DNA of 53,535 nt, filler included, from Jimgerdemannia flammicorona (Eukaryota), in assembly GCA_003990765.1 (NCBI GenBank). It is 3 parts of 3 records of this genome, joined end to end, with 100 filler letters (N's around TTAATTAATTAA, not from the genome) between each part and the next. Parts side by side here need not be neighbours in the genome. Positions count along the whole stretch, not along the records: positions 17,883 to 35,664 come from RBNJ01002414.1; 2 more parts are not named here. One strand, written 5' to 3'. The notes beneath the pieces were generated by a model that did no database searches, was not told where the DNA came from, and saw only the letters and a list, made by a program, of their open reading frames with translations. A program made the translations under genes and the position numbers. Positions 4,656-53,521 of the stretch are shown one piece after another (position 1 is the first letter of the stretch; every line of letters starts with the position of its first letter).

Positions 4656-4657
<2 letters not shown>

Positions 4658-13879: not shown

Positions 13880-16800
13880 TTCTGATGGGTGTACTGGGTT
13901 AGATAGATCTGAGGTCTTTGGATAGCAGTATGTTGAGAGAGGTTATGGCCTGAGAATAAGCTCTTTTGGTAGTTTGAGTGGTTAGAAGAGATCTGGAGGA
14001 TAACAAGTAGCAGAGAGGAGTAGAGGCAGATGAGGGCCTATGAGTTTTACTGATAAGATAAAGATGAGAGGATGATTAACAGATACTCAGACTGGTGAGG
14101 CTGGTAGTAGTAATGGACTGGGCTAGGGGAAGATAAGAGGCCCTTTATTAGAAGAGGTGGGTATAGAGACTAGAGAGACTAGAGGAGGGACTGCTGATAA
14201 TTGTATGACTGTAAATCTAGAAAAAATTCAAATATGATAGCTGATAATAGGGCTGGACAAGGGAGCTAAATAAGGAAAGAAGATCTGAGATAGGACTGAT
14301 AGTAGTATCATTACTCAAGAAGTTGATCTTGGAATTTGTCATCACACTATACTTCTGAGGGCTGGCAGTAACTGCAAAGATAGTTTTAGAGTTAATCTCA
14401 AAGCAGATGTCTGAGGTGGAATCTGTAAAGTTTCTATATAAGCTGAAGGAGATTGAAGTAGACTTTAAGAAGGTGAGACTACTAGAGGAGACTTTGAAGA
14501 CTGGGTTGGCATTTGGTGTAGTAGTAGTATCAATAGTAAGATATCTATAGTGAGACCCCAGGGTGGTATAGCTTCTAGTGAAAGGAGTGTCTATAGTGAT
14601 AATTACTGAGATAAGAAAGAGAGTAGAGGATATAATAGTAAAATATAGTGATATAGTAGATGTTGGGTTCTAAGTCTGAGAGGGGACAGCTTTCAGAACT
14701 AGGAATATAGATGTCTAGCTTTAACTTATAGAGAAGGAGGCTATAGAGAAGTCCCAGGACTGGTCTTTAGTAATAATATAGAGAGCTTTTATCTGTAAGA
14801 TAATGAGGATAAAAGAGAGTAAGAGTAGAGGAGCAGAATCTGTTGAAAACATTAGAGGACTTAAGTGAGGCAGTAGAATGTCAAGCTATAGTATGGAGAG
14901 AGTATATCACTTCCACTTACTTGGAGATATAGATGAGAAGTATATTTAGATAGACAAAGTACTGTAGGAAAAGATACAAGAGAGGAAGAGACAGAGAGAC
15001 TTGCTGGTAGAGTTGAAGATAGTATTAGCTGAAGAATTAGAGGAGAGTCCCAAGAGAGCTATGATAAGTAACTGGGCTGCAAGTAGAGTAGAGAGACTAG
15101 GGGAAGGGGGGAAAGTAACCAGAGAAATGAGAAATTAGCAACTATATAATGGTGTTGTGGGAGAAGAAGGAACAATATTAAGATAAGAAGAACTTATAGA
15201 ATTCAATTTGGAGTATCAGATATCACAAAAGGAGAACAGGTGATTGGTGTTGAAGTAAAGGAGTTAGTGGATATCCTAGAGAAGAGGTAGAATGAGTCAG
15301 CTAGTACTGAGGCTGATACTACAATATTGGGTAGAGGGCAGCCAGATACTTCTGGGGGAAAAAATATTAGTAACTTGTGATAGATATACATAATGATATA
15401 CAATCTGATAGTAGAAGAGTTGAGAGAGGTGGACTTGAGGGTGGTTAGTAAGGACTACAGGGAGAAAGTATTGAGGAGAGATAGTATAGTGGAGGTCCTG
15501 AAGTCTAAGGTATTAGCTGTTTAATTTAAAGAAAGAGTCATGAGATAGATGCTATAAGGGAGGCTGAGCTAACTATAGCTGCTAGGGATAGTACTAACTT
15601 CTAGTGAAAGAAGTAGGATAGGAGAATACTATAGAGAGAGATATATAGAGAGAAAATAGAAGAGAAGAATGATAAGATAATTGCTGAGATCTTAGCCAAG
15701 ATGGAGATAAGAGAGACTGAAGGGACAGAGATAGAGACAAAGTATAGTAGAGACTTGGATCAAGAGGCAATAAGAGTAAAGCTATAAAGAGATAGATCTA
15801 CTCTATAAATATCTATTCTTATAAATAGTACAACTAATATTTTCTTACTAAATATAAATAGTTTGAGAGGTTCTAAGAGATGTTAAAACATTTTCTCTTA
15901 ACTAAAGAAATTAGAAGCCAATTTCTTTCTTTTATAAGATATATATTGAGAGGAGAACTTAGATGGACAGGACTGGACTAAGGAATAAAGGGGTGCTGTG
16001 GTTTGGAGAAATAAGGTTAGAATGCTATTGAGAAGTGAAAAAGACAAACTGTGTGAAATTAATAGCTAGAGTAGCTGATTGGTATAGAGTGAGTGGTACT
16101 GATCAGAGTGGATACTAGTTATTATTGGCTCTTATTATTGTCTAGCAGTACAAGGGGAGTAGATTGAATGGTTGAAGAGACTGCTGGATTGTAGAGCATT
16201 GGTAAAAGCAGGTGTAGATATTCTTAGGGGTAATTTAATATAATCAGAGATGTAGTAGTAGACAGAACTGATAGAGAGAGGAGTACTGATAACCATAGTA
16301 ATAGTCTGGAGCTATGAAAGGAAGTTAAGAGACTGAGCTCTTTGGTGAATACAGAAAGGACATCATGGAGAGGCTGGCAGATATATATATACTGAGTGAA
16401 TGGACTTGGAATAAGGATTGACTGAATATTGACAGCTGACTGCTAGAGGATAGATATTTAGAGAAAATTAAAGATAGAGTAGTGCTTATAGTCTGATAAT
16501 TGGAGATTGTTAGGACATAGTTAGTTTGAAGAGAGTGAGAATGGATCTGGATATTGGTGTCTCAATTCCTCCTTACTGGCTAAGCAGAAGTTATAGGATA
16601 GGTGGGTAGAGGACATTAGACAGAATATTATTTATTAGATTAGAAAGGAGTGCCCAATTAAGGTCTACTGGGTAAGGTTGAAAGAGGCTGCCAGAGTATA
16701 CTAGAGGGAGACTGGAAGACTGGCTGGTAAGCAGTATCATAAGAAGGTGAGGTGGATTTCTGTAAGATTAGCATGACTTTAGAGAACTTGGGCTGGTCTG

Positions 16801-17782
16801 CTGAGACTGGCAACAGGAGAGGATTGGAGGCTAAAATGAGCTAGGATGGAGGTAGAAGAGTTATAAAGAGTTTTGAGAGAGGAAGAGGAGACTTATATGA
16901 AGGGAATGACTACTAGGTTGAGATGGTAGGAGCTTGAGGATAGTGAGAGGCTCTTTAAATATTTATCACAGCTTTTTCAGACTTGGAGAGTAAGGCAGAG
17001 GTGGGACAATGTTCTTGATGAGGAGGGCTTGCTGGTGAATGATATTCAACAGATCTTAGACTCTCTGAAGAGAAGATGGGGGAACCTGTAGAGTTAGGAG
17101 AAGAGAGGTACTGATATAGAAGCTATTGAGAAGGTACTGGAGGATTAACATCCTCCTCCAGTAGATAGTCTAAGTAATCTGATTATGTCAATATAGATGG
17201 AGGAAATATAGCTAGTTATTGTAGCTATATTATTAGACACTATACCAGGTAAGGATAGTCTGCTCTGAGCTTTTTGGAAAAAGATAGTGAAGGTCCTAGG
17301 GGTGTTAGAAGATATAGCAGCACTGTGTAACTTTATACTCTTATCTGGAAAGTGGGTCAGAGAGCAGGGCCTTGGTCTGGTAGCACTATTGTTTGAAAAT
17401 AAGAGTAGCTAAGAAGACTGAAAGAACTGATGGCTAATTATACTTCTGGATATAAACTGGAAGTTAGTCACTAAAGTGATTATTATAAGACTACAGAAGG
17501 TGATTGTATTTGAGGAAGGAAAGTATTTGAGTTTGGAGGAGCAGTTGGCAAGATAGAAAGAGTTGATGGAGGATGTCTTGATGGGCTGGTGATTGAGATG
17601 GGGTCTGCAGAGAGATAGGTGACACTGTTTGGTGAAGAAGATCTGTAGGCAGAGTGAGGGGAGAATTGGAGTAGTGGATAGCAGAGTGGTTTTTAAGCAT
17701 AAGAGTATGAAGGAAGGGGGAGGGGGGGGGCTCTCTAGGGGTATTGGATAGTGTGAAGGAATAGTATAATTATATATAATAG
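13880..17782 (+). mobile_element. Decayed L1/Tx1-like LINE: ORF1, APE endonuclease and RT start, with an internal deletion joining to the 3' end
   Basis: Near 15835, NIFLLNINSLRGSKR (APE I motif ILSxNVNGL). Degenerate ILGGDFN near 16220, SD(H) near 16492, PGKDSL near 17245, R-P-I-x-LL-like motif near 17430. The 3' UTR at 17710-17782 resembles 49290-49350. Confidence 0.8.
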
Positions 17783-17882
17783 NNNNNNNNNNNNNNNNNN
17801 NNNNNNNNNNNNNNNNNNNNNNNNNNTTAATTAATTAANNNNNNNNNNNNNNNNNNNNNNNNNNNNNNNNNNNNNNNNNNNN
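17783..17882. other. Artificial contig linker N44-TTAATTAATTAA-N44
   Basis: Six-frame-stop 12-mer centred in Ns; identical to 35665-35764. Confidence 0.97.
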
Positions 17883-18202
17883 TGCGCTTCGCGCGGGGCT
17901 TAAAGTTCTTGGATCGGTTTTCTTAAATAAGTCATATTTGGCACCCCACTTGGCCTATCCTGGCCACCAAAATTATGACTCGGGACCATCGGCGAAATAA
18001 TCCTCAGTCGTGTTACAGGAGCGTGGAACCCTTAAAAGTTTGGTGCAGTGACCGAGTCGTAGCCATAGCGGTCATCTGACTTTGTTATCTACTCGATTGA
18101 CAACATTTGAGCGATTGCATCTTATTTCATTTTAGTGCTTGGTGACCACGCTTGTCGAGAATGCGTTTTGCGAAAGTCGTTTACGGTAAAGTCGGTTACG
18201 TT

Positions 18203-20986: not shown

Positions 20987-23900
20987 TACAAAAACTTGAT
21001 TGTAGATACAAATTGCTAAATAACTAGTTATTGATATATAATTAAATGTATAATTGAATATAAAGTATATAAAGTATCAGAATGTTCACCAGAGAAGTAA
21101 AGTGATACTTGAAGCAGGCATACTACTGAAACTCAAACTAACTAAGGTGGTGTGGGTACAGAGAAATAATTGAAACTAAGCTGAGCTATATGATTGTATA
21201 AATATTAAGTGAAAGATAGACTGCATGAATGTTAAGTAACTATGACCACTTTGCTACCATTTGAACTATGTTTATAACTATATTAAAGTTTCTTATATAT
21301 AGGAGTTATGGTGTGAAGATTGAAGTAGAAATATTTCTGTATAGAAAAGAGTCATATAAATATCTATCAGATATAGGTTTGGTAATAAGGAAGCATATGC
21401 TTCCAGAGGTCTACCAATTGTATTCATATGTAAAAAGGCCAAACCATAGGTCAAGAAGTGGATAAGGCTTCTAAATATAGTGCTGGTACTGCTGACCACT
21501 TGTCGATATCTTGTGATCACTACTTGCTAAACCCAAGATCTGCTAGTAATCAAGAAGGGGCATGGTAGCTAGAGTGATAGTTGTCTGAGACAGAATGTGA
21601 TTAAGTTATCAAATATAATACAAAAAGGCTAAGAACTTCTAGTGATCAGCTAACTAGATAATATGATCTAAGTAGCCCACTTTTATGAGTAGAGTGGTAC
21701 TACCAATATGAAAGAAATGGCTGTAAATTCTGGTAGCCAGAGTGGTACCTCCCAGAGGGTCTAAATGATATCAATGAATATTGAATGGAAAAGAAGTTGA
21801 GTTGGGCTAAAGCAAAAGATGGGATTGTGGGATTGAGTAGAATAAATGTAAACTATATTATCAATAGCTATGCAGGAGTAGTCAAAAGTACCTAAATATC
21901 TCAAGAATATATTACCAGAAGTACTCAACTTGGTATGAGGAAGATAGAGAGATCAGAATGGCTAAGAGAGAGTAGAGTCCCAGTACTGCCAAAGGTGTGA
22001 CCAGCAGACCTGCCATTGTGGATTAAAAGATAAATAGTTGGGGATGTGAGTTCACTGATATATATCAGGCCATAGAACACTATATATGTCATAGCCCACA
22101 TAGTAGCACTATAGGGTATATTAAGAGAGAGAGTAGTATGAATGAGATAGAGATATTGATAGATAATTGGGAGGCATTCAAGAGAGTATAAAGAGGAGGG
22201 TAAGTGGCTCTGGATTAATTTGAGGACAATGTCGAATAAAGGTAAAGAAGTACAATAGAGAGAGGGGCTATAATGGTGAGCCAATTGATAGATAGCAATG
22301 TTGTAAAAATAGTTCTTAATAGTAGTATATGGTTTCTTATCATTAGTCAGCCAAAGGGTCCAGTAGCTGAGAAGGTCATCATGGAGGGGAAAGGCAATAT
22401 TGTCATTAATGCTGTAAGTGCTTAAAAGTGGTAAAGGGAGTTGGTACCAGATTGGAGGGTACCTGTGCAGATGTAGGAATGTTGATAGAGACAGAACTTG
22501 AAGCAATAATGAAGCCAAAGAGAGATATTATCAACAATGAGAGCAGTTTCTGAGGATAAGTGGAGAGGTAGCATAGGTAAGAAAGGGGGTTAGCAGAATT
22601 AGATGCAGATGGAATATATTGAGCTTGAATGTCAAAATCTATTTGGAGATATAGTAGAGTAATGTAATATAAGAGGTCATTGACAAGAGGGTGGTATTAT
22701 GCCCTACTGCTAGTTAAAGATATAATACAGGACTGGCTATTACACTATAAGATAATATATTGTTTCTAAAAAGAGAAACCCTATAGTAAAAGTGAGACCC
22801 AGACTGTAAATATTTCTTTTCAGAAAATATCATATTCTGGCTGATTGCTAAATAATGTGACCCACTGAATATTCTATCAGTATTGATCAAAGAGGCCACC
22901 AGTACTAATTGTTCTGGAGGCATTTATAAATAGACTACAATTCTGTCAATTAGAGTGAAAAAGCAGGCAATGACCTGTTCAAGAGAATAGGACATCCTGC
23001 CACTATTAAAGATTAGTAATGAGATAAGAAGATAGATGATGCTGCCTGACATAGGGCAGTTTCTATGAGGAGATAAAATAAATAACAGAGTCACAAAATA
23101 CTTTCCCATCAGATAGGACCTGGGTGATATGTATAAGATGACCTAGTAGAGACTGGGCTTCATAATAGGACCTAGGGTATGGCTGGTGTATATGATGAGA
23201 TAGAGTAAGTCAGTCAGTCAGTAAGGTGAGAATGTAGGTATGCTTTTTATAAGAAAGGCCAATTGTTATATTTGGGACATCAAGAAGGAAGCCCACATAC
23301 TTGATAATTAGTATTGAAGATATGTTCTTGGCAACCTTAAGGAGAAGGCCAAAATGGATAATAATGGAGTGAAATTGCAAGTATGTAGACTGTGTTATAG
23401 TTGATGAAGCAATATAAATAAAGTCATCTACAAAATAACCCAAATTAGAAAGGTTATACAGATAAATACAGATCTATATGAATAAGTTTATTAGAGATAT
23501 AAATATGAATAGTGCTGAGTAAAGACTGAATGAGAGAAATATGTTAAAAAAGAAAAAGCTGAGCTAATAGATGCCTTGTATGGTCCAGTCAGACTGGTGT
23601 ACAGGAATCATGCAAAAGGCTTCAGTGATGTTACTCTTCTAGAAAAGAGTAGAGATACTTAGTGCTAATAGTATGTAGATAACTAACTGGATAGACTAAT
23701 ACTAAATAGAGAACTCTTTAGGGTTGATATTATTATTAATAGATGCTCCTTCTGAGAAGGACAGGTGTTAGATAGTGTGAAGTTTAGTAGAGTTCTTCTT
23801 TGAGATAATGCCTAAGAGAATGTTACAGAAGGGGTAAAACTTAGTAGATAATATTGATAGAGATAAAAAGAGGTCTAGATAATGACCTGCTTAGAGTTCA

Positions 23901-26292
23901 GTGAGGATGTTGGTTGAAAGAACTTTATGGTATTGGTAGGCTAAAGCCAATTTGTCTGATATATGATCAATGTAAAGCTCTGGGTGGGAATGGTTACTAT
24001 GAAAGTAGTCATAACATAGGCCAGCAAGATGATACTAAATGAGAGATTAATCTGAGTAGGCATAAAGTGCCTACTACCATTCTTGGATATTGTAAGGACT
24101 TTCTGGAGGGTTGGAAGATAGTGGGGTCATGAGATTAGCTGCAGTGGACAGTGCACTCTGTACCTGGATGAGAGCTATAGCAGAAAAGATAAATATGGGA
24201 GCAGTCACAATTAGTGCAGTAGTCTATACTATTATAGTTGTGATAGATGGAGGTAGTAGTGCTATCTGAGATGAGAGTAGTGCTCTAAATAAGTTGATCC
24301 AGATCAGATTCAAATCCCATCTGGATCAATTCAAATCAATCATTGTTTGATTTCCAAATTAGATAATTAAATGTTTATATTAATAACTTAATTAATAATC
24401 ATCCAATTTTGATAATCTTGATGTCATTTGAAAGCCCTTAATAAGGCCTTTTTAATAATATCAAGAACGTTAAAATTGGATCATGCATTGCTGAGTTATC
24501 AAAGAAAAACATCTGACTTGCTGATTTTGGAAATTTCTTCAAAACAACATTTTTTTTAATAACTCGGCAATACATAATCCGATTTTAATGTTCTTGGTAT
24601 CATTGGAAAGGCCTTACTAAGGGCTTTAAAATGACATCAATATCATCAAAATTGGATAATTATTCATTAAGTTATTGATGTAAACATTTAATTGTCTAAT
24701 TTGGAAATCAAAACAAAATTGATCTGAATAGAATTCAAATCCCATCCAAGTTGATCTAGATGGGATTCAATCTGAATCCAATCCAAATCCAATCCGGATT
24801 AAATTGACTTATTCAGAGCACTAGGTGAGAGTGTCTTCAGGTTTGATAGTGAACATAGATTGTAAAAGTGGGGTTTGGGTGCAAGTGGTCAATATATGTC
24901 CCCACACTCTGTACCAAAAGCACAATAGAGGATTGCAGAAGTTGTTCTGGGGCCCCTGATTGAGGGGGTGGATGCTAGAGCTGACCTATGTACTGGCTGA
25001 TAAGTAAATAGTACTAATGCTGGCTGACTAATAATAGTTTTGAATATGTATCAGACAGCATCTAGATTACTAATGTCAAGCTCTATAAAAGATGTCTTGA
25101 GGGTATGAACTTGTCTATCAAACCATTATAGAGCCATCTAGTCATATCAATCATTAATGGCCTTAATAATGAAGATATTATATATCAGTAGCTATATGGT
25201 ATATACTGTATAGATAGTAGTTTATATAATACAAAAGATCAGTAATATATTCCAAATTTTAAAGATAGTCTCCAACTAAAGCAATAAGTTGAGGTCATAG
25301 TCTGGTAAGTGAGAGTTAGGTTTCTGCTAAATGCTTGAATATGATAGCAGAACATTTCTAGTCCATTCAGCCAGGATTTGATATTCTCTTGCTTCAAGCA
25401 AAGTCAACAGCTCTAAGGGGACTCAGTCATGATGTAGAATGGTATCAGAGATGAATGAGAAAGTTGATAACTCATCATTAAGAGGATTTGAAGACCAGAA
25501 TAGTGAGGATACTACTGGAATTGGCAGCAATATGAATGGGATTGCCACTAAAGGATAGAATACTACTAGAAGGTAGGCTGAAGATAGTAGATTAGATAGT
25601 AGGGTTGGGAGGGTAACATTGGTACCCACAGTTATAGCAGTTAAGACAGGTGATCTATTAAGATGTACAGTCAGTGCAGAGAGTAATCATTTAATCAATA
25701 TGTCAACTACTTAGGCATTGGTGGGAGTTGTCAAAGCTGGTATCATAGGGTCTATAGTTAGAGGTTCAGGATCTGGTCTGTTGGTATCAAGATGTATAAC
25801 CAGAACAGCCTTCTGACTATCTATAGAAAGGTCATAATTGTGATAGAGTATAATTAGTTGATCCTTACATAGTGTTTGTAAGCCAGAAAGATTAGAAATT
25901 AATAGGCATATGTGTGAAGAACCAGATACTAGAGCTGGAGCAGAAGGCAGGTCTTGAGACTAACAGATAGGTGGTATATTGTTAGATAGAGTAGGTAAGT
26001 ACAAAAACTTAATTGTGAATACAAATTGCTAAATAACTAGTTGTTGGCATACAATTGAATATATAATTAAATATAAAATATATAAAGTACCAGAATGTTT
26101 ACCAGAAAAGTAAAGTGGCACTTAAAGTAGGTATACTACTGAAACTCAAACTAAGATGGTATGGGCATAGAGAAATAATTGAAACTAAGCTGAGCTGCAT
26201 GATTGTATAAATATTAAGTAAAAGATGGACTGTATGAATGTTAAGTAGCTATGATCACTTTGCTGCAGTTTGAACTATATTTATAACTATAT
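20987..26292 (-). mobile_element. Decayed Ngaro/DIRS-type tyrosine-recombinase retrotransposon (gag-like, RT/RH, YR) with ~300-bp direct repeats
   Basis: Direct repeats at 20987-21284 and 25998-26292. RT motifs YFVDDF (~23430), degenerate LPFGLRSAP (~23510-23540), KS(D)I..AF..IPV (~23600-23640), KK....R.I.HLS...SIN (~23730-23800). YR C-terminus SH(S)F(R)IG(GA)T...(GRW)KS.AF..YI at ~21610-21725. Confidence 0.85.
24278..24823. mobile_element. hAT-type non-autonomous palindromic MITE, copy 1, inserted in the Ngaro element
   Basis: Termini TAGTGCTC..AATAAG / CTTATT..GAGCACTA. 8-bp TSD GATGAGAG/GGTGAGAG. The body is a ~200-bp-arm inverted repeat. Confidence 0.88.
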
Positions 26293-27395
26293 ATTCTCTA
26301 TTATAATAATTAATAAATATATACAGTCTAATACTATATTATCTAATGCTGAATACTTGATATTATATGCAGTAAAAATATACATTCTATGACAACTATA
26401 CTCTTTATTTATTATAATGAAGTATTATTAATAGATGATATCCTATTATATATACTATTTTGCATAAATACTAATGAACTATATATAAATTTACAGCCAC
26501 TATGGTCCAGATTGTTACTTTACAGACAATATAATAATGCTAGTTCTGATAGTATAGTATATAGCTTAAGATGTGGCTATATCTAAAAAAAAAATTCAAG
26601 TATTATTGATAATAACAAAATAGAGTAAATACTATAAGATAAAGGAGAAAATAAAAACTTAAAAGACATTTTAATGATTATTAGCTTATAGTGTTGACTT
26701 TTCTGTTATATTATAAACTTGAAGTAGATAATTATTATATTTAGAGATTATTGTAATAAAAAAAAAAAAAAAAAAAAATAGTTGATATATTTGTCTATAG
26801 TCTGATACTATATAAGTTTTTGAAATTAATACAATAAAGTTAGTTTAATAAATAGTGATATAATCTCTTATAAACCTATATATCAAATTAAATAAGAGTA
26901 GTACAGATAAAATGAGAACAGTTATAAAATATTTAGTTGATTAATACTCTCTCTTGATATATATATTATCTTCTAATTGACTTATTACTGACTTACTACT
27001 TTGTACTCTATCTTTGATAGCTTATTGTATCTTATTGTAAAAAATTTAAAAAACAGTAGATTTGATCACTATTCTCTCTAGAAAACCTAATAATAAATTA
27101 TAGGATACTAGATTTCTCTTAAGCTCTATCTGAAGTTCTATAATAAATATTATTATTTATAGAAAAAATGGTAAAGAATTTCTATTTAATGACTCCTACT
27201 ATTTTTTCAACTATATATTGACTAACTGGACAAAATCAAAAGTTAGATTGTCAATAATCTTAGAGCAGAGATCTAAATATTAGTAATTATTTACTTATTG
27301 TAATGGTGACCCCAGAATGATGATATTAGCACAAGAGATAGTCTTTCCTTACAAGCCAGTAGATCAGAGCATAAGAAGATCATACGGTATATGAG

Positions 27396-28365
27396 ATGAG
27401 CAATGATGACCAATTGTGAGTCATTGTGACCATAGTTGAGTATCTTGAGAAATATAAAAGAAGGATCAAGGAACTGTAGTAGCAGCAACCAACAAGACCC
27501 ACTAATCCCAAAATAGCTCAAAGACTTACCACAAACAAAATATCTGCTACTTGCCAAACCTCAAGGTCAAGGAACCATCAAGGCATCTCAGTTAAAGAAA
27601 GGATGTTCCAAGACATCAGAAGAGCCATGAGGACCTGCTCCTAGTATCAACCTGGGTATTGGTGACCCTTATCATTATATTCTCTACTGCCATGAAATGG
27701 AAACAAGGATCACTATTACTACTGAATATCTCCAAATATAGCAGAAGTACAAAATAGAAAACCTCCTCTACCAAGAGTTCCCACAGGCCAGCACTCAAGA
27801 GCTATAAGATGCCACTTCCATAGATATATGTGAAACAAGGACAGCTAAGAAGATCCATCAGATCTTCAGGCATGTACCATAGTTGATCCCCAACTTGGAG
27901 TATGTTAGAGTCTCAGATTTCAGAGACCTATCATCTCACTGTATCAATGTACTAGAAGCCAGGGTGGCCACAGAAGCCCAGTCCACTATCACCCTTAATA
28001 GTGATGAAGTAGAAGACTTCTGGCATTCCATTCTCCAGAACAACTCAGATCAATTCCTGCAAGGATTGATCTCAGTATTCCAAGGCCCAAGTATCCAGAT
28101 TAGACCTCCCCAAGACCCCACATTTGTTCCCTATTTTGTGGAAGAGAACCTCATAGACTGGAGAGCTCCAGATATCCTTGTTCCTGCTGCTGCCACTGTT
28201 GAACATGATGATGTCATCTTACATGACATGAAAGTATATGAAACATGCAACCTATGTGATGACAATGACAAGACAGATGAGATGTTCATGGACCTCATCT
28301 CCTTCAAAGACATCCTGACCTCTGATGAGGATGAAGCCCTTATGGTCTTGAACATTCTGCTCTAA
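27396..28365 (+). pseudogene. LTR-encoded ORF of family B (about 320 codons in consensus)
   Basis: The open 160-aa C-terminal part (27883-28365) extends in frame through 27697 (METRITITTE...) across three TAG/TAA stops; the last two read CAA and TGG in the 50.9-kb copy. One small indel near 27636 links it to the MSNDDQL... frame from 27396. Confidence 0.72.
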
Positions 28366-28375
28366 GTCCTTTGGT

Positions 28376-28470
28376 TATACTGAATAATACCAGCACCGGC
28401 ATTTTGATATAACACTGAATAATGCCAGCATTGGCATTTTGATGTAACACTGAATTATACTAGTATCCTG
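28376..28470 (+). repeat. 35-bp tandem repeat (about 2.6 units) in LTR B, immediately after the ORF stop
   Basis: ACACTGAATAATRCCAGCAYYGGCATTTTGATRTA repeated. Confidence 0.85.
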
Positions 28471-29901
28471 AACCTGTACAACTATCAGTGCCAACTCTGG
28501 AACTTAGCAGTTTTTTCTGTCCTGGTATTTTATTTTAGTTATTGGAATTTATATTTAGCTTTATATCTTAGCAACCATTGAATTATATTTTGTATAAATA
28601 CCCCTCTTATTTCCTCTAAAATAAAGTCAGCCTATTCAGTTCTAGTTCACTTATACACAATCCCTTGCAAGCAATCTAAGAGATAATAAGACAGTTTAAA
28701 AGATAAGAAGTTTGAGGACTATAAGACCTTGGGAAGGTACTCCAATAAGAACTTGCTTATAACAAACTTGAGTTAGTCTAAGAGATACACCTTGAAGAGA
28801 ATCTGGCATATTTGAATGACTCAGCGACCACTATATGACATTATATAATCTATTGGAGTTTTTCTTAATAATTTTATATATATTATCTTTCAGTAGAACT
28901 TTTATAGTATATTACTAAAGAATAGTAATAAGGCAGACTCAGAAAATTATTATTTATTTATTTATTAGTAAAATATTCTAGTAAGAGATATTAATAATAG
29001 CTACAGTAATATACTTTAATAACAGATTTATCAAGTAATCTAGTAAGGCTAAGATTGATCAGAAGCAGATTATTTAAAATCTCAAAAATGATGTTTTTAG
29101 AATAGAGGTCATGATGGATATAATAGAATATATGAAGATTAGTAAGACAGTAGAAAAAATAGAAGAATAGTTATACAATAAGGTTTTAGTCATTTGAGTA
29201 ATAGGAAATAATACTTTTAAGAGTACTATGTAGAGTAAATTCAAATACTGTTAAGTATTGATAGTCTTTAGAATAGTGAGAGAGACTAATAAAACAAATA
29301 GTAGATTCTATATCATAAATAGTCAGATAAAAATTTAAGACTAACTATAAAAGTGAGTTTAAAATAAAAAGTAACAGTATAAGTAGGTTTGAAATAGAAT
29401 ATAATATTATAAGTAAGTATTAAATAAAAAGTAGTAGTATAAGTAGAAATAAGACAAAGTTAAATATAGTAATCTTATATATATATCTTAAAAGAGCAAA
29501 ACTCATATCTCTTTAATTTCACTATTCAATTCCTTAAGTATAAAGTATACTATAGTATTCTCAATATTGAAAGTAATAGTTCTTTTATATATCTGTAATG
29601 GTTTGTTACATACAAATCTGTCAAATTTATCTTATTATGCTAAACTGTACCTAATTAGGAAATTGCCAAAATTGTCTATATTATATGAGAACTTATATCT
29701 ATTTTGAATGAACATTTTAGCCTTTAAAAATTCTAACTAAAATTCCAATAGAAATTTTATTGGAAATTCTAATAAAATTCCAACTAATAGTTATAGATAT
29801 CTCATATAGTATAACTATATATAAATATATCCAGTATACTATATTTAGCCATAATCTTAAATATATATAAATATTCTCTATACTGAGTGTATTGTAACCT
29901 C

Positions 29902-35764: not shown

Positions 35765-38700
35765 TTTTTTTATAGTCACTTAGACTGCAACTTTATTATT
35801 ACTATTATAATAACAATTAACTATGAACTACTACTAACATAATATATATAGGAAGGATTGCTCAGCCAACTCCTTTCTTCTACCTAACCCCATGATCATC
35901 TAACACCAGGTGCCCTCATCTCTGCTATATAATATCCTGCATCTTCTTTAAGGCCTCTGGTTGAAGCTGCTTTCTCTGATACTACCACCCCTATACTACC
36001 TCCTGGAGAAGCCACCTCTACTACTCCACTAACTCTCCGATTCCCATCCATAGGTCCTGCTCAAATATCCATCATCAATGTACTGCCATCAGAACCTAGA
36101 TCCCTAAGACCTAACCTAGGCCTCCCCAGATATCACCAATCTCTCCCACCAGCTGGTGCTTGACCACCAGACTGACTGGATTCCTAGATCTTCAACCCCC
36201 AGGGTCCCAGTAATCTTCAAAACTCTACCAAAACCCTTTAACCCTAGGACAGGCTACCAGAACATGCTCTGGTATCTGAACCATCCCTCCATCTACCTCA
36301 CTGCACTACTTGCAGTCCCAACAACTATCTACCTCCATCCAGCCTATCCTATAACCCAGCATCACATTTTTTCTCAAGAATCACTACCAAACTACCTAGT
36401 ACTTAGGGGGCACTACCTTGAGCAAAGAGGCTCCCCAACTTCAGATTCGGCCCCACTCTCAGTCTTTACCAAATCCTGCTCTCTGCCAACCAGCTGGCCA
36501 TCTCTCCAGAGGGCTAGACCTGATCCACTCCATTGCCTCAACCAGTGAGTACTCCTTCAAACTATGGCCACCAATGCAGAGTTTTCTCAGTCACCACCAT
36601 CTCTACTCTAGGTTCACACCAACCTCTATCTCTGGTCCTACTAACCTCATGGCCAGCCAGGCCTCTACAATGCCCCACCAGAACCCCTTAAACTGCAGTC
36701 TACCTATATTTCCAATCTGAAGCAGACCCTGCATATCCTTCCAAACCTCACCATAGAGGCAGAACAAACCTCCCAATTGTCTATGGCTAGTCTGCCCCAA
36801 CCCTCCTCACCTAGTACTACTAGGTGACACCCCTACCAACCCTGAAGTACCTTCAGCTAGCATCTGAAGTCCACTAACCCCAGGTCTCCATCAACTATCC
36901 TCATCACCACTGTGTCCCACCTGATCTGTGACCACTTTCTATTTTACAACTATCCTTCTATAATCTTCTTCAGCCACTGTACCACCCACTCTAGAAAATC
37001 CAGGTGATATTCTAGATACCACAATTTGAGCAACCAATATATATTCAAAATCACTATCCTACCTACCAAGGAGAAGCTCCTCCCTGACCAACCAGTCAAA
37101 GTATCTTCCAACTTCTGAATCAATCCACACTACCACTTCTTCAGCAGAACTGTTCTATATACTGAGAACCAAATATCCAGATACTGAATAGCACTTCCTG
37201 GGGCCACCAATTGTCCAAATTGTCCATGTACCCCCAGACTAGCACTAAGTTCCATTGTCTCACATTTGCCCCAATTCAACTTAGCCCCTGCCAGCCTATC
37301 AAACTGTCCAACCTCTTCCTGTAGGAGGTCCACATCCTCCATACTACCCAACCCTACCACTATGTCATCTGTGAAAGCACCTAGCTTCCAGACCACATTA
37401 TCTATTTATAGTCCAGTAAGCCATCTCTTTAGCCATACCAGCAAAGGCTCTAAAAAGAGTACATAGAGGAGGGGGGAGAGAGGGTCTCTCTGTGGTACAC
37501 CTTGCTCCAAGGCAAACTCCAGTCTACTTTATCCATTCATCATAACTGCTGCTCAGCATCTCTATACTAGGCTCATCAATTGCTCTGCCTCTGCTACACC
37601 AAACCCTACCCTCTTCAGAACAGTCTCCAAATAACTCCACCACACTCTGTCATAGGCCTTCTTTTAATCAAGAAAGACCATCTGGCCATCTACCTACCAG
37701 CTCCTACAGCCCTCCAAGACATTCTGCATTCAAGCAGTACTATCTCTGATCTATCTCCCCTTGATAAAGCCTCACTGCTCTTTCCCAACTAGCACACTAA
37801 TATACTGCTGCATCCTCACTACCAAAATATTTAAGACCAGCTTTCTATCTATATTCAGCAGCATGATAGGTTACCAATTATGCCACACTCATCGATCTCC
37901 CTTTTCCTTATATAGAAGGGAAACTAATTCCAAGGAATCATAACCGATCTAGCTGCCCTCCTTCAAAATGAAGTTAGCCATCTCCACCAACCAGCCACCA
38001 AACTCTGTCTGGAACTCCTTCCAGAATTTCCAGAGCAACCCATCCTCCCCAGGTGATGAGCCAGTTTGTGTCTTTCTCAATATCTCCAAGACCTCATCTA
38101 ATGATACCTCTCTTATGACCATCTTACCTATCTCAGATAATGCTATTACTGGCCAATTATTCACCATATTGTCATTGTCCTCCCAAAGTACTGTATCCTC
38201 AGCATTGTCCCCACCATCCTGCAAGAGAGCCTGTCATTGTCCCGATATCTCTCCCAATATATCCACAATCTCTGAGATCTTTACTCTATCTTCACACAAT
38301 ACTGAGGCCCAGCTATGTCATACTCTCCTGGCCTTCAAAATACCAGACAGATATTTAGTCAGCCTCTCTCCTTCTTCCAGCTATCTAGCCTGCAATCTGG
38401 CTAGCAGGCCATCTACCACCCTGTTCTCAGATATCCTCAAGTCTGTCTACAACTCTGCCACCTCTACTATCAACTGGTAGTATACCTCTCCAGACAAGTT
38501 TCCCTCTTCTAATAACTTCAATTGCCATTATAGCCTCTGCTCCACTCTCCTTTCCTTGTCCTTCTGCTCCTTTCCAGCCACTTCTCCAACATCATGCCAG
38601 TAAGTACCTGCCAAATGTTTGAATTTACCCCACCATTCTACTATCAACTGCCCATCATTCTGCCATTGTGCAATCTCCTGTCTTGTAACTGCCACAAATT

Positions 38701-41400
38701 GCTCTCTCTCCTTCTTCCTTCTGAGTAAGGCCACATTGAGATGCCAATGCCCTCTACCACTGCCTGCTGTTTGGAATCTACCACACATCTCTACTCCCTA
38801 GTAATCAGACCAAGAGCACCAATGTACCTCTGTAATGTCCAGCATATTGCCCCAGCACTCAGCTACTAACACCTAATCTATTCACATCTCAACCAATCTA
38901 TTACCAACTGGGTGCTACTGGGTAAAGGACCCTGACTTATCCCTCTGATGCTAATAAATACCATCCACCAATCCTATGTCATGCTCCACCTGAAGCCATT
39001 AAGATAGACCAGAGGACATTGCTACTTCTGCTCCACCATTAGACCTATCCATTGTTTGATCATGCACCATATTAAAGTCTCCCCCCAGAATGTCCAAAGC
39101 AACTACCTTCCAACCTTCTTAAGCTTGCCAGCTCTCAATCTATTGCTTTCGCTCTCTGCCAACTGTAGGGAGGTAAACTGAGCCTACTGCAAAACCATTA
39201 TCTGCCCCTTCTTTTAGTCTTCCCCATACCAGTCTGTTACCATAGACCACTACCTCCACTTTGCCTATACTAACCAAGATGCCCACCTGCTTATTCCAAC
39301 CTACCCCACTGTATCATTCTTTACTCCACACCTCATAGTCTTGCTCCCCATAAGCTCAAATGTCCTGAAGAAAAACAATATCATATCTCCTGACTTTAAG
39401 CTATCAGAATAGCTACCATCTCTTAACCCTATCATGCAATCTATTGACATTGATTGATAAAATATATAAACTGTTCATCATCATTAAAGAAATTGTTTAA
39501 AGCATAGCTGGGACTGCCACACCCTTCTCAGCCCTTCCTCTAATGATCTCTTACTGGTTCTCACAAATTGCCCTCCTGATACAATCACCATTCACACTGT
39601 TGCAGAAAAGATCCACTCTTAAAGCTGTTATCTTTCTGATGTCTGCCATTCTGCTCTTATCAACTTCATATCCTTCATCATCCAGAAGAGCTGCCACAAT
39701 TGCCATCACCAGCTTGGGCCCCTATATTGTAACATTGAGAAATACTTCTCATACCTTGTGAGATCCATGAAAAATGTCCACTTCCTTGATATCTTCCTCC
39801 ACAAGTTCCTCAAGTACTACCTGATACTAGTTCTCTGCCATTATTGCCAAAGGCCCAGGAGTCGATGGTCTAGGGGTCCTGCTTAACTCTTGCAGCTGCT
39901 CTCTGTCTGCTGACACATCAGAGGCCACATCCATCAGCTCATCCTCCTCTGCAACCTTCTCCAAATGTACCACTTCCCCAGCCTCAGGGCACTCCCAATG
40001 AATATTTGCCACCTCAGTTATATGGGTGTCCTCCATCTGAGTCTCTGGTACTACTTCAATAATATCCTCAAAGTCCCCCTCTCTCACCTCCTCCTTATCT
40101 GCCCACTTTTCTCTCATTGGTACATACTCTGAGCTTTTCACACTACCCAGCTGGGAGAAGGACACCTCGATAGCTTCAACCCCTTCCATCTGATTCTTGA
40201 CCACCTCTGTTCTCATCTTCTCTTCCAATACTACCCCTTGAAGAGCTGCCTGCAGATGCTCTCCATTTCCTTTCCTCTACCTTCTGCCTGCCATTAGCTT
40301 GAATCCAGACCCAATCCTTGGCAAACTCTTCCCACTTCCTCTTTCACAGCTCCTTGGCAGCCTCTCTCTCCTCTAGAGTAATTGCCAGCTCTTCCTTCTC
40401 CTGTTTGGCTCCTTTCCTCCTCCACACCTTGCACTCTTGTCCTCTAATCTGAATCCCCTCTGGCCAATCCTGTCTCAGCCCTATTGCCTCCTTGCCTTCC
40501 AGTTACAGCATCACCTCACAGTTGCCATTCCTCAGTTTGGTGCCCTCTCAAAACATGAATCTGAAATCCACCATCTCACCATAGCTCTCCAGTGCCTCTA
40601 CCATTATTGTCTTAGTCTCCTGTCTGTCCAGTATTGGCAGGCCTTCTACTACCAGCCATATAGCACACAGGTCCCACCTCAAACACCTCATCATCCCAAT
40701 CCCGATACCCTTAACAGTCAGCTCTTTCTCCAGTGCCTTCATCATTGTCTCCTCTTCCACAAATCCAATCTCCACTGCCTCCACCAATAGGATAAACTTC
40801 AAGAACTCTGCCTCAGCCACATTATCCCCCACCAGTCTCAGAACCTCCCTAGCTAACATTGCCAATCCCAGGAAGTTCACTGAAACTGCCCATATTGACA
40901 CCAACTTGTAAAAGAAGAGCTGCACTACTAGCTTACCTGTCTCAGCCACCAGAGTCACCTTCTCTTTTGTTCCGGAGATACCAGTGGTCACTCCACCAGC
41001 CATAGCTGTACCACCAGTAGTCCTCTCCCCAGCCACCAGCCTAGCCCCAGAATAACCAGTCTCCAATATCATACCACCAGACCCCTGCCCCCTGCTGGAC
41101 ACCTGACCTGTTACCTGACCCATCACCTGACCCCTCCCCCTATCAATACTATGCCCCCCCTGCCCCACTCCCAAAGGCCTGGCTGTAGCCCTCCTGCTCC
41201 CTACTACAGTATGCCAGACCTTGATTCCACCAGACCTCCCCTGACCACTAGTCCCTCCAGTAGCCATACTAGCCCCTGCAGCAGCTACAAAGCTCTTGGG
41301 AAGGTCCAGACCAGGCCTCCTCCTCTCCAGATGCTTAGAGCTAGAGGAACCTTAACTAGCCATATCACCAAAACTTGATGGTTTTTGCTGAAACTTATTG
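35765..41400 (-). mobile_element. Near full-length L1/Tx1-like LINE: ORF1 ~41267-39484, ORF2 (APE+RT) 39478-~35870, poly(A); many premature stops
   Basis: ORF2 starts MNSLYILSINVN. DILGGDFN near 39070-39095, GRGHWHLN, SPGEDGL, GVPQRDPLSPLLY near 37460-37500, AFTDDIVV, GAKLNWGKCE. Tail AATAAA...AGTCTAAGTGACTATA(A)n at the contig start. 5' end approximate. Confidence 0.9.
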
Positions 41401-41534
41401 TGCCTTATAGATAGACTCCTGCTGCATGATGTACACTAGTGTATTTGAAATAAAAACTTGAAAATATATTGTCTTTCACTGAAAGATGTCTGTGTGGCTT
41501 AGCTTGCTCTGAGTAGTTTGAGCAAAAGAAGTCT

Positions 41535-44431: not shown

Positions 44432-46493
44432 TGTAAGAGGGTTGCTATTTAAAGTAACTGTTACATAGTTCTGGGAGGGTTTTCTGGAAGTTCTGGATAT
44501 TCTGGAAGACTGTTTTCTTTTGGTCAAGATCAATTTTATATGGAGTATATCCTCTATGCTTATTGATTTTAAGATCGGATTGACATCTCAACCAAAGTCC
44601 TTTTTCGGACTAGTTCTGGATGTTCAGGATTTTTCTGTATTTCAGGAAGTTCAAGAAACTAAGACCAGCTTAGTTGAATTGGTGTATCGCTGCAGACAAT
44701 ACTCAATTAGGAAATTTCGTGACAGGGTTAGGAGTGGGACCTAACGGGAAGTAGATTTACTTAAGAGTGGTTTGTGGGTTATTAAATAGGTTTATTCGCT
44801 ATTCATAATATTGCTATACTAGGAGTAGTTATGTGAAGGGGTATTGTGGAGAAGTATTCAGAAATGTTCTTATGTGTTCAAGTCTGAGATTCTGAGGTCT
44901 GGGGGAGGGGGTATTTATACTAGTGAGGGGTTATCTGGACTATGCTGAATATGGATGTAATACTAAGTGCTTTGCTGAGTCAGAATGCAGTCACATAGTA
45001 CAAGTGTGATCTGACATGTCAAGAGATTGTCTGACTGCTGAGTCAGTTCACAGTTATGTCGTACAAGGCTAATCTAACTATACTATGACTGCTAGGCTAT
45101 TTATGGGTTTAGGCACTATCTGGGTAGTCCTCGATGACATCACCATCGATTGCATCATCTCTGATGAAGTAGTCGCCCAGGAAAAGTGGTTCGCAGATTA
45201 CTTCTCCTTGTTCACTGAGATAATAATATATTGGAACTTCATCTCCATCCCACAGGATAGCATCGTCTGTCTTGTAGGCTAGATAAGGTGTTGGTGGACA
45301 AAGGAGGGGTGCATCATCTTCACTTTCATCAGATTCGCTATCTGTATACCTTCTGTAGATTACAGTACTATGAGTCACAGGGTTGTAGTAAGCTGGTGGC
45401 TGTGGTTCATGTCACTCATACTCGGGTGGTGGAGTGGTTGGTTCAATCTTGAGGGTTATCTGGAGGTACAGGTTGTATTCTCCAGTCTCTTCATTGTAGT
45501 TGAAGTAATCGGGAATGAATGCAGGTTGGTATTCGTGCCAGTGGTCATTGTCTCAATAAGATTCATATGCAGTTATGAACTATTGTAAGTTCATCGGCAA
45601 GGTTGGGGGAGTGATCAGGGTTGGCAGAGATCCTTGGCTAGAGGTCATGTTGGCATCAGAGGGATCATTGTCTTCTGCTTTGTCTTCATCAAAGTGGATT
45701 ATATCATAGATGTCCTTCATGGCATATCCAACTTGGGGCATTTGCAGGATATGATCATTGGGGTGTGGGAAGATTCTATCTGTGGTTTCAATGTACTCGA
45801 GGTACTTGTGGTTGAGTTCTTGTATCATGTCATCGATTTGACCATAGGACAGAGTAGTAACCATTTCACTGGTAGTAACTCGGAGGCGGGAAATAATGGT
45901 ACTATACTCATAGAAGAGTTCTCGATGTTTGCGGGTGATGAGCTTCTGGTGTTGAGACATCTGGGTAATGTCTGTATCATGGTGGTGTTCAACCATGTCT
46001 TCCAGGAGGCGGCCAATCTGGTAGTAGCTTGAGATTTGTCTGATTCAGTGGGCCTCACTAAGCATGTTCAGAGCATTCCATCGGGCTTCCATGAAGTAGA
46101 GGGGTGCTAGGCTATGGATAATCATGAGGGGCAGAGGGGGTGTAGCTTAGTTGACAATAGCATTCCAAATATCAGTGCAGATATAGTTGTAGATCTTGGT
46201 AGTTATGTTTGTGTGTTTGGAAGTTGTAGTTGTTGTTTGTTTTGGTTCTCTGATTTGAAATCTCTCGGTGCTCAGTATATATGCATTTGGTCCTGATTGG
46301 TAAGGTTCCATTTATGTAATTCTTGTGTTCTGTAACTTCATATTGACTCAGCTTTGTATGCTGTGACTTCAGTTTGACTCAGCTTTATGATCAAGCAGGT
46401 AATTTCCAGATTTGTTCAGAGGTCGTGTGTGATTTCAGTGGCTTGTTCTGAGGGTGATGTGTAATTTCGGTGGCTTGGAGGTGTGTGCTTACA
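44432..46493 (-). mobile_element. Gypsy family A complete 3' LTR (2062 bp)
   Basis: 6-bp terminal inverted repeat TGTAAG...CTTACA. Preceded on the minus strand by PPT AAGAAGGGGAGAGT (46494-46507). TATAAATA at 44919-44912 and AATAAA at 44796-44791. Confidence 0.92.
45109..46206 (-). pseudogene. LTR-encoded ORF of family A (366 codons, one frame, start ATG>ATA, a few transition-derived stops)
   Basis: ORFs 45996-45580 and 45378-45109 share a frame with ATA at 46206 (ATG in copy 1). Internal stops TAA/TGA/TAG revert by a single transition. TATATA at 46281-46276 lies upstream. Confidence 0.85.
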
Positions 46494-49425: not shown

Positions 49426-49427
<2 letters not shown>

Positions 49428-49439
49428 TGAAGATGATGA

Positions 49440-50351: not shown

Positions 50352-51894
50352 TATAACAATGACCTCAGAATGATGAGATCATTATAGGAGATAGTCTTTC
50401 CTTATAAGCCACTAGATCAAAACACAAGATTATATAGCATAACTTACCCAGGCTATGAGATGAGTAATAATGACTAACTATGAGTCATTATGACTATAAG
50501 ACAGATATCTCAAGGAATATAAAAGAAGGATCAAGAAACTGCAGTAGCAGCAACTCAAACAAGGCTCACAGAAATAGTTTAAAAGACTTACTATAAATAA
50601 AATACCTGCCACTCACCAAACCTTAAGGTCCAGAAACCACCAATGCCCCTCAGTCCAGGAAAGGATATTCCAAGACATCAGAAGAGTTATAAGGACCCAC
50701 ATAAGAAGGACTTCTAGCCTCAACCTGGGTACTGGTGACTCTTATCATTATATTCTCTACTTGTAAAATGGAAACAAGGATCACCATTACTATTGAATGC
50801 CTCTGGATATACATAGCAGGAATATGAAATAAGAAACCTCCTCTACTGAAAATTCCCTCAGGCCAGTCTCCAAGAGATACAAGATGCTACTTCTATAGAT
50901 ACATATGAAATAAGGATAGCCAAGAAGATTCATCAGATCTTCAGGCATACACTGTGGTTAATCCCCAACTTGGAGTATATTAGAATCTCAAACTTCAAGG
51001 AATTGTCAGCCTGCTGTACCAATGCACTGGAGGCCATGGTGGCAATAGAAGCCAAGTCCACTATCACTCTCAATAGTGATGAAGTAGAAGAGTTCTGAAA
51101 TCCCATCCTCCAGGACAATCCAGATCAATTTCTGCAAAGATTGATCTCAGTATTTTAAGGCCCCAGTATTCAGGTTAGATCTCCCCAAGATCCCATCATT
51201 TGTTTCTTATTTTGTAGAAGAGAATGTTATAGATTAGAGAGCCCCTGCTATCAGCAAACATGATGACATTATTAGTGATAATGTCATCCCACTAATGGGC
51301 AACATATACAAAGTATGCAAAATGAACAAAATGTTTACTGACCTCATTTCCTTTAAAGACATCCTGTCTCTGATCTTTAGCCTTAATAATAGTGATGAAG
51401 ATGAAGCTCCAATAGTTCTGAACTTTCTGCTCTAAGTTCTTGATAATACTGAAATCTACCAGTATCCTTTTTCTATATAACTGAATTCTACTAGCATCCA
51501 TTTTCCTATATTTCCAAAATCTACTGGCATCTTGAACTTGTACAACTATTTGTATAGGTACTTGAATTTATACTTACAACTGAAGTTTTTTGTGTTTCAG
51601 TATTTTATTTGGTTATTGGAATTTATATTTAGCTTTATATCTTAGCAACTATTGAATTATATTTTGTATAAATATCCCTTTTATTTTCTTTGAAATAAAG
51701 TCAGTCAAGTTCACTTATACTCAATTCTGTGCAAGCAATCTAAGAGATAACAAGATAGTTTAAAGATAAGAAGTTTGAGAACTATAAGACCTTGAGAAGA
51801 TACTTCAATAAGAACTTGTTAATAACAAACTTGTAGTTAGTCTAAGAGATATGAATCTGATATATTTTAAGATCTCAGCAATCACTATATGATA
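50352..51894 (+). mobile_element. Gypsy family B 5' LTR (1543 bp) containing the decayed U3 ORF
   Basis: Colinear with 27299-28840; termini mutated to TA...TA. Followed after 3 nt by TGG. Confidence 0.88.
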
Positions 51895-51897: not shown

Positions 51898-51914
51898 TGG
51901 TGCCCATTGGCTGG
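51898..51914 (+). promoter_or_regulatory. Primer-binding site TGGTGCCCATTGGCTGG (tRNA not assigned)
   Basis: TGG 3 nt after the LTR end and just upstream of the gag ATG at 51924. Confidence 0.7.
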
Positions 51915-51923: not shown

Positions 51924-53521
51924 ATGAATTTCTTACTTTCAAGCTGAAAAACAAACAACTACCATAATAACTACCCTGACTACAAGAGTTACCCCTGTAA
52001 GAATTCAAGATAAGATGGAAATGTATTTCCTCACATTCTATAGATATATTACCAAAGAGTCAATCCTGATCTTCATTGAAGACTTTAAACAATTTGCTAC
52101 CATATCAGCTCTCAATATCAATGTATAATTGGCCCTTCTACCAGTTAGTCTCAGAGGACCTACCAGAGATAAGTTCAATATAACTACCATTGCTGTACTG
52201 GTGCAGCCAAACTTACCAACATGAAGATCTTCCTCAGAACTATATACTATACTGAAGAGATCAAGCAAGCTCTCAAGGATCATATCAATACTATCTGCTA
52301 AGAACTCAGTAAAAATCTCAACTTATTCTATATCTGAATCTGCTACCAGATTGTCTTGACTGGCTATAATGATGCTCTCAAGAAACAAATAGCTAATTCA
52401 AAGAGTCTATTCTAAAATTACTCTAGCAATCTGGTCTACCTCAGCTGCTCTGATCCTTGATCAGAAAGTAATCTTTACACAGAGATATTGGACTGCCAGA
52501 CACCCTGCTGAATACTCAATAGAGAAAATAACTAGCATCAAGATAGAGTCACAAAAGCCAACCAGTATTATATCCACCACAGTTGTTAACAGATAGCTAT
52601 CCCCACCTACCCCCAAGACAGCCAAAGCTAATCCAGTGGAGGAACTCACCAAGTAGTTTGCCAAGATAACTATATATCTTGGTGATATTGTTAGAGAAGT
52701 CTGAAATGCAAATAGGAGACCAGTGCAGAGAATTGTAGTTGTTATAGAAGAATACAATATCATATACTTTAGATATAGAGAAGAAGTCCACTATGCAAAG
52801 AGTTGTATGACTGAAACAAGATATAAAGCCCAACTAAGCAATGCTACCAGAATTAGAGAACAAATCAATATAGTAGTCATCAAGGAGATTAGTGACACTG
52901 ATGATGAAAAAGACTATAAGGAGTCTGAATTCTACCTATTACTGAAGGTACTAGAACCCAGTCCAAGCTCTATGAAAAGAAGAGCAACAGTAAGCCAGTT
53001 AGAAGACCAAAGAAGACTCCAGCTGTTACTATTCAAAGTAAGACCCAACCTGAGGAGATTGATCAAGATATGGAGTTAAATGAAGCTGTCTGCCAAATTA
53101 TTGAAGGCACTACTCCAGTCTCAGGAGAAAGTGAAAGCAAGAAAGAACAGAAGCTGTACAAGACCAATATCCATCAGTATGATATCTACAAGGACCTCAA
53201 GGAACAGAAGGTCAATACTACTTTTGAACAACTAGTCAAAGTTTCTGCCTTTAGACAGTAGTTAAGAGTAAGACTTGTAACCACTGTCAAGAACCAAGAG
53301 TGCAAGATAATAGAAGCTCCAATATACAAGAAGATGAATAAGAAGACTCAGATAAAGAATCTGAAGACCAGTATAAGATATCAGCCTATATCTCATGTCA
53401 GATTGAATATTATATCTTTGATGCTATCATTGATATGAGTGCTGGAGAATATCTCATAAGTAAGAAGACAATTGACTGCCTAGGTTGGAACATTGAAGAG
53501 TTTACCAAAATGGTCTACCCA
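51924..53521 (+). mobile_element. Family B gag-protease pseudo-ORF, truncated by the contig end
   Basis: IIYFRYREEVHYAKSC = decayed CCHC knuckle (CFRCGEEGHYAKSC) at ~52760-52806. DAIIDMSAG = aspartic protease D-T-G-A at ~53420-53446. Confidence 0.8.

Follow-up and report, generated by a model that had tools for sequence, protein, structure and literature searches.

The family B LTR and its reading frame

We analyzed a 53,535-nucleotide (nt) stretch of the Jimgerdemannia flammicorona genome (GCA_003990765.1), consisting of three parts joined end to end and referred to here as the window, and focused on a long terminal repeat (LTR) of a retrotransposon family, family B, that contains a decayed open reading frame (ORF). 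A solo LTR of this family spans 27299..28840 (+), within the part taken from RBNJ01002414.1. It comprises 1,542 nt with TG...CA ends, beginning with TGTAATGG and ending with ATATGACA, and is flanked by a TTAT target-site duplication (TSD) that was read directly at 27295..27298 and 28841..28844 (+). End-to-end alignment paired it with a second copy at 50352..51894 (+), recognized as the 5′ LTR of a family B element by this alignment and by the primer-binding-site (PBS)-like sequence that follows it. The two copies aligned over their full length with a mean column identity of 86%. Both the TTAT-bounded solo LTR and the use of the second copy to fix the LTR limits, as put forward in an earlier reading of this DNA (the original prediction), were thereby upheld.

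A promoter and a poly(A) signal could both be read inside the repeat. The TATA box TATAAATA, the presumed promoter of the genomic RNA, lies at 28593..28600 (+; LTR position 1295), where it had been placed before, and an AATAAA poly(A) signal follows 20 nt 3′ of it at 28620..28625 (+). Both elements are conserved in the 5′ LTR and in L001, a metagenome contig described below, in which AATAAA again comes after the TATA box. A further TATAAAA upstream, at 27453..27459 (+; LTR positions 155–161), is a candidate promoter of the LTR gene and is located 87 nt before the start codon position of the ORF. The sole internal repeat, a 35-nt unit in 2.3 tandem copies (28379..28460, +), lies in the interval from the ORF stop to the TATA box and may have an enhancer-like role.

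Using tblastn with intact relatives, we delimited a decayed ORF at 27540..28365 (+), corresponding to LTR positions 242–1067 of 1,542. It runs in the sense direction, lies wholly in U3 upstream of the TATA box and recurs, likewise decayed, in the 5′ LTR at 50602..51435 (+), in agreement with the predicted sense ORF upstream of TATAAATA; the acidic C-terminus that had been noticed was also confirmed. Its extent had to be revised. In place of a protein of ~320 amino acids (aa) beginning at 27396, homology sets the start at 27540 (LTR position 242) and the size, for the window’s own subfamily, at ~271 aa, and the window contains no open frame of ~320 aa.

The solo copy has ATA in place of ATG at the start codon position, an 11-nt deletion near 27635 that shifts the frame, and stops at 27739 (TAG), 27805 (TAA) and 27880 (TAG), where intact relatives read W, Q and W, respectively. 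Only its last 160 codons (27883–28365) are open; read from 27301, the frame ending at 28365 contains ten stops ahead of the terminal one. The 5′ LTR copy also starts with ATA and is broken into four frame segments with at least three stops. As predicted, defects of one copy are repaired in the other, the 5′ LTR copy filling the 11-nt gap and reading sense codons at two of the three solo stops. L001 reads sense codons at all three. Judged by these lesions, both window copies are dead, having lost the start codon and gained stops and frameshifts. The 160 open codons of the solo LTR were reached by 2 of 1,000 dinucleotide shuffles, and the longest open frame of the 5′ LTR (91 codons) by 116 of 1,000. 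Taken alone, the window offers evidence for a gene that is only suggestive.

Intact relatives in environmental sequences

Of 948 candidates from a word-indexed search with the read-through translation, four proteins had E ≤ 0.01. When 1.84 billion representatives were searched exhaustively with a profile, five reached E ≤ 0.001, and a profile search of 90% clusters gave six among 5,124 candidates, including P0023 (325 aa, ~30% identity). Altogether, the relatives amount to 24 sequences in nine clusters at 90% identity. All of them are open and 138 to 342 aa long, with identities among them reaching down to ~30%. None of the members found by the exhaustive profile search is fused to gag, pol or any other protein, the longest measuring 342 aa. 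Outside these nine small clusters, no homologue was detected among the 1.84 billion representatives, and neither viral contigs (34 pattern matches) nor prokaryotic genome contigs (six pattern matches) provided a confirmed related locus. The relatives derive from JGI/IMG or ENA environmental records, are located on contigs of 540 to 4,848 nt and are annotated as ‘hypothetical protein’ at most. That the family is represented only by unnamed environmental predictions fits a masking of LTRs before gene calling.

Conserved features mark both ends of the protein. P0012, P0004, P0007, P0008 and P0023 share an MP(A/P)..R start that maps to LTR position 242, with identities to P0012 ranging from 57% down to ~30%, and most full-length members terminate in P-x-x-LNF.

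The contig L001 (1,345 nt), the sole locus confirmed among 259 pattern matches in a metagenome scan, provided a comparison at the DNA level. It aligns with LTR positions 153–1449 and begins with AATATAAAAG, followed by the ORF; beyond a spacer of poor conservation come TGTATAAATACCCCTC and AATAAA, and the contig ends within U5. It remains colinear with the window LTR across the TATAAATA region. The upstream AATATAAAAG does not vary between L001 and the two window LTRs, and the order of elements is retained even though ~40% of the aligned ORF sites differ from the solo copy. L001 carries an intact ORF of 323 codons at 69–1040. Its longest stop-free frame of 343 codons was matched by 0 of 1,000 dinucleotide shuffles (maximum 194), and an in-frame stop closes the frame 21 codons upstream of the ATG.

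Related LTR copies were also present in X1 and X2, two public sequencing runs of one organism with word shares of 0.11 and 0.09, which were compared as contigs only. At least 99% identity to the LTR was reached by 2 of 43 pieces in X1 and 12 of 54 in X2. At positions where the window reads T or A, the run contigs mostly read C or G. They also contain 11 extra letters at 27634–27637, restoring the frame, and exchange 138 nt of the tail for 147 nt, both lengths being multiples of three. By these two features, the commoner copies are ones that retain the frame lost by the window copy. With regard to the tail, the versions in P0012 and P0008 are much longer than those in P0003–P0005, and this part of the protein appears to be a variable but frame-preserving module. 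The exchanged segment corresponds to 28184–28323, where a high-depth X2 contig has 147 other letters for these 138 nt of acidic tail.

Selection on the frame and reality of the gene

We estimated ratios of nonsynonymous to synonymous substitution rates (dN/dS) by the Nei–Gojobori method, with L001 as the single relative available as DNA. Between L001 and the solo copy, dN/dS was 0.33 over the whole ORF (282 codons), 0.13 in the core (156 codons) and 1.13 in the acidic tail (78 codons); the solo and 5′ LTR copies gave 0.36 over 267 codons. All of these values are rough and include, for the window copies, neutral decay after insertion. In the core, differences between L001 and the solo copy amounted to 0.35, 0.23 and 0.48 at codon positions 1, 2 and 3, respectively. 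The codon-level pattern points to purifying selection on the core. Together, the dN/dS values below 1 and the intact frames in relatives, open in all nine clusters and 323 codons long in L001, bear out the prediction of a protein-coding sequence in sense orientation in U3.

Could the open frames reflect chance composition or gene-caller artefacts on repeats? The longest frame of the 5′ LTR is unremarkable against its shuffles (116 of 1,000), and every relative is an unnamed prediction on a short contig. Against this stand the 343 stop-free codons of L001 compared with a maximum of 194 in 1,000 shuffles, the nine clusters that remain open down to ~30% identity with start and end motifs in common, and the core dN/dS of 0.13. 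We regard the absence of a gene as extremely improbable.

Alternatively, the frame might not be a stable part of the LTR but come from something nested in the LTRs of this subfamily, either an unrelated element or a host gene that was captured. It has no similarity to gag or pol, LTRs are often insertion targets, and an origin by ancient capture is possible. Around 27540–28365, however, we found no direct or inverted repeats, terminal repeats or duplications of the kind that such an element would contribute. The order of TATAAAA, ORF, TATAAATA, AATAAA and U5 is the same in L001 despite the divergence of the ORF, and the searches of representatives, viral contigs and prokaryotic genomes revealed no homologue beyond the nine clusters. 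Little weight can be given to a nested or captured origin of this type.

That a real, conserved gene lies entirely within the LTR has, in our estimate, a probability of roughly 80%; this gene belongs to no described family. Several points weigh against it. It is known from sequence data; the search for matching public runs turned up no RNA run, the two runs retrieved being of uncertain kind, and the environmental contigs may be DNA or RNA. The family is tiny and confined to environmental records, with no member in an annotated genome. Regarding selection, there is one DNA relative only, dS is saturated (2.4 in the core) and was not computable against the 5′ LTR copy, and dN/dS in the tail is 1.13. 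L001 begins exactly at the upstream TATAAAA, so that the comparison starts there. Structure models of the protein are poor, leaving the charge pattern as the sole functional clue, and the retrotransposon nature of the internal region is read from relic motifs, with none of three frames recognized by Pfam.

Position of the gene within the LTR

The original prediction had allowed for an ORF that starts in the internal region and reads into the 3′ LTR, as nef does, in which case the LTR copies would be 5′-truncated fragments. In the decayed solo copy, frames with a coding appearance do occur upstream of 27540, and the window contains no family B 3′ LTR junction. The L001 frame, however, is closed 21 codons before its ATG, and the Met-Pro start at LTR position 242 is shared by five proteins down to ~30% identity; the in-frame stop and the conserved N-terminus indicate that the gene starts inside the LTR. 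Moreover, the members retrieved by the exhaustive profile search do not exceed 342 aa, and fusions to pol or gag were absent among them. A nef-like start is thus highly unlikely, and the evidence argues for a sag-like position of the ORF, wholly in U3.

According to PMC2664473, the long ORFs in orthoretroviral LTRs are sag of mouse mammary tumor virus (MMTV) and nef of primate lentiviruses, with shorter LTR ORFs in some HML consensus LTRs and in bovine foamy virus. Nef is likewise an accessory gene that codes in the 5′ part of U3 of the 3′ LTR, which is a likeness to family B (PMC2664473). Nef differs in starting upstream of the LTR, whereas the family B frame is closed upstream with its Met at LTR position 242, and the two proteins have no sequence similarity.

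The resemblance to MMTV sag comprises a sense ORF of ~320 codons located wholly in U3 and consequently in every LTR copy, as well as LTRs that are both unusually long (1.3 kb in MMTV and 1.5 kb in family B). It does not extend to sequence: the proteins are unrelated, and none of ten family B members reached any Pfam cut-off (best E-value 0.13). Sag is a membrane glycoprotein, whereas the family B protein is acidic and has no long hydrophobic segment by eye. Family B also differs from MMTV in that it is a retrotransposon, shows no env and probably resides in a fungal host.

Another parallel is offered by plant LTR retrotransposons, whose additional ORFs (aORFs) occur alongside gag-pol and are mostly orphan, lineage-specific and of unknown or regulatory function (PMC7264820). 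As we read that review, its aORFs lie in the internal region, whereas the family B ORF lies in the LTR itself; its presence in a TSD-bounded solo LTR sets it apart from the internal-region type, which is placed either 5′ of gag or 3′ of pol. The phrases ‘in the LTR’, ‘inside the LTR’ and ‘LTR region’ have no occurrence in PMC7264820, and the passages of PMC2864245 on additional ORFs of fungal and plant chromoviruses and of Athila mention them as internal only. Full-text literature searches, whose coverage was incomplete, retrieved no description of an LTR-internal ORF in LTR retrotransposons other than retroviruses. The family B ORF is sag-like in position and, by its sequence, represents a new orphan family.

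Candidate promoters and expression

In the simplest model, which has two promoters, the LTR gene may be transcribed from its own promoter, the TATAAAA 87 nt upstream of the start, and polyadenylated at the AATAAA of the LTR. The upstream TATAAAA at 27453 would then give rise to an mRNA of ~1.15 kb ending at this AATAAA, and the downstream TATAAATA to a genomic RNA whose start lies immediately 3′ of the poly(A) signal. All LTRs, even solo ones, would in that case be self-contained genes. L001 has no ATG in the 68 nt before its start ATG and has A at −3. We rate own-promoter transcription as plausible, at somewhat less than an even chance. An alternative is a spliced subgenomic RNA using the 3′ LTR copy, as for MMTV sag. 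Upstream of the ORF, a branch-point/AG candidate noted by eye at ~27499–27514 was discarded as not conserved in the 5′ LTR or L001.

The conservation of the upstream TATAAAA between the window copies and L001, and the ATG-free leader of L001 with A at −3, would also suit a different arrangement, with this TATAAAA as the element’s real promoter and the ORF in an R region of ~1.1 kb. In the genomic RNA, the ORF would be the cistron nearest the 5′ end. The poly(A) site of the 5′ LTR would terminate the majority of transcripts, leaving a minority to read into gag-pol. This arrangement seems unlikely, since TATAAATA followed ~20 nt on by AATAAA is conserved as well, and a strong-stop DNA of 1.3 kb would be unusual. 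A spacing of ~20 nt between TATA box and AATAAA fits a start just after the poly(A) signal, in which case only the copy of the signal in the 3′ LTR is transcribed.

Features of the encoded protein

The family B protein is an orphan, with no match in Pfam, in the Protein Data Bank (PDB) or at the level of the fold. A profile search of PDB sequences gave no match at E ≤ 1. AlphaFold2 models had a mean predicted local distance difference test score (pLDDT) of 40.1 with four sequences and 48.1 with ten; in the latter model, a helical core at approximately residues 55–160 (pLDDT 53–85) is followed by a disordered tail. Foldseek detected no match to the PDB at E ≤ 0.001 (best 1.1). Among 48,161 chains, VIA-align scored no higher than Z = 6.2 (70 residues), a value that falls in the noise range given for helical models, and the ESM Atlas returned only unnamed or implausible clusters (0.86–0.91).

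In intact relatives, the protein has 215 to 342 aa. Its N-terminus is basic and rich in Ser and Arg; a conserved core of helices comes next, and the tail, which is strongly acidic and disordered, closes with the conserved P-x-x-LNF motif. Charges are +7 to +8 over the first 60 residues (P0004, P0003), and the net charge is −20 to −36 overall. The acidic tail is studded with hydrophobic residues, as in DLISF, DLITF and VLNF. The basic N-terminus and the acidic, hydrophobic-rich tail, together with an analogy to the retroviral genes that lie in U3 or overlap it, which are accessory without exception, lead us to speculate that the product could act in the nucleus as a regulatory or accessory factor. 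It might, for instance, activate the element’s own LTR or counteract silencing by the host.

Decay of the window copies

The two LTR copies differ at 323 positions, of which 235 are transitions. Whereas CpG observed/expected reached 1.09 in a neighboring Kelch gene and 0.33 over the window as a whole, it fell to 0.05 and 0.00 in the two LTR copies. Arg codons of the relatives correspond to Cys, His or Gln in the window, as in YRRE versus YCHE. For the most part, the lesions of the window copies arose by C>T and G>A substitutions, which stripped out their CpGs. This combination of CpG depletion and Arg replacement points to deamination at methylated CpG as the probable route of decay, rather than to CpA-directed repeat-induced point mutation. 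The intact ORF of L001 is CpG-poor as well (0.08), suggesting that CpGs have been lost or avoided over long periods in a repeat-methylating host.

Internal region downstream of the 5′ LTR

The original prediction had reported a PBS, a gag knuckle and a protease after the 5′ LTR. A TGG-initiated, PBS-like site, written TGGTGCCC, begins 3 nt past the LTR end, with TGGTGCCCATTGGCTGG at 51898..51914 (+); the window contains no tRNA genes for comparison. The other two features were found as relics read by eye. The sequence YFRYREEVHYAKSC at 52765..52806 (+), in an ORF at 52723–53079, would fit the zinc-knuckle pattern CX2CX4HX4C if two Tyr residues were Cys (TGY to TAY). At 53432..53446 (+), DMSAG, in a frame that reads FDAIIDMSAGEYLIS and includes IIDMSAG, may represent a D-T/S-G-A-G protease site after transitions. 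Recognition by Pfam failed for all three read-through frames of the internal region, and the protease relic had no match among PDB sequences. No reverse transcriptase was found within the window.

A second family with a coding LTR

Three decayed copies of another LTR-borne frame, belonging to family A, are located at 45115–45864, 8806–9506 and 11231–11641, all on the minus strand. This frame comprises ~250–330 codons and has an acidic tail. It has an intact environmental relative, P0022 (247 aa, 63% identity, net charge −36), which reads Q or W at the stops of the window copy. Families A and B thus both have a decayed, LTR-borne frame with an acidic tail and are not homologous, as had been proposed; hhalign gave a probability of 0.75%. 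An RDDVIDD heptad (and P.F..YF) common to both families was attributed to chance, with 207 of 2,000 shuffles scoring as well against the family B motif profile.

The idea of two families with coding LTRs therefore gained an intact relative for family A, and a pair of unrelated LTR-borne genes within 53 kb is noteworthy, while its extension to a lineage-wide strategy is weak, as it rests on two families in one window. That such a strategy would answer the host’s repeat-mutating defence, as the original prediction also put forward, is conjectural. In a broader form, the LTR as a complete gene with promoter, ORF and poly(A) site would have evolved independently in at least two families as a recurrent strategy, for example, for self-activation or for suppression of methylation- or RNA-based silencing. 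We consider this a possibility, though a doubtful one.

Surroundings of the LTRs

Two pairs of direct repeats, 29947–31086/33175–34314 and 20984–21283/25997–26292, have spacings of 3.2 kb and 5.0 kb and identities of 78–90%, and probably represent the LTR pairs of further elements in the vicinity of the solo LTR. The Kelch gene used for the CpG comparison, at 1456–3780 (+), is host-like and consists of several exons with short gaps between them (apparent introns); judged from this gene, the host is probably fungal. Its product has Kelch repeats (Pfam Kelch_6; score 31.2 bits, cut-off 25.3). Beyond these, it is rich in Ser and Thr over some distance and then passes through a hydrophobic segment into a short tail. 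A frame at 4470–5099 (+) contains a run of ~20 Phe codons, which is a long T tract. GC skew is extreme (+0.48; −0.42 to −0.45) at 14001–18000, 22001–24000, 36001–44000 and 46001–50000, probably reflecting strand-asymmetric composition or the decay of other nested elements.

Implications

LTRs are treated as non-coding and masked ahead of gene calling, so that a conserved gene inside them would be systematically missed. If the arrangement proposed here is true, the principle known from sag and nef, accessory genes in U3, would reach from vertebrate retroviruses to retrotransposons, with a sag-like solution outside retroviruses that involves an orphan protein fold. With every insertion, and with every solo LTR that recombination leaves behind, the genome would gain one more expressible copy of a trans-acting accessory protein. 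Should LTR-borne genes be expressed, solo LTRs, rather than being inert scars, would represent scattered copies of a factor that a transposable element (TE) encodes, and models of TE–host conflict and of TE ‘public goods’ would change. Two new orphan protein families are now available for tests of these ideas.

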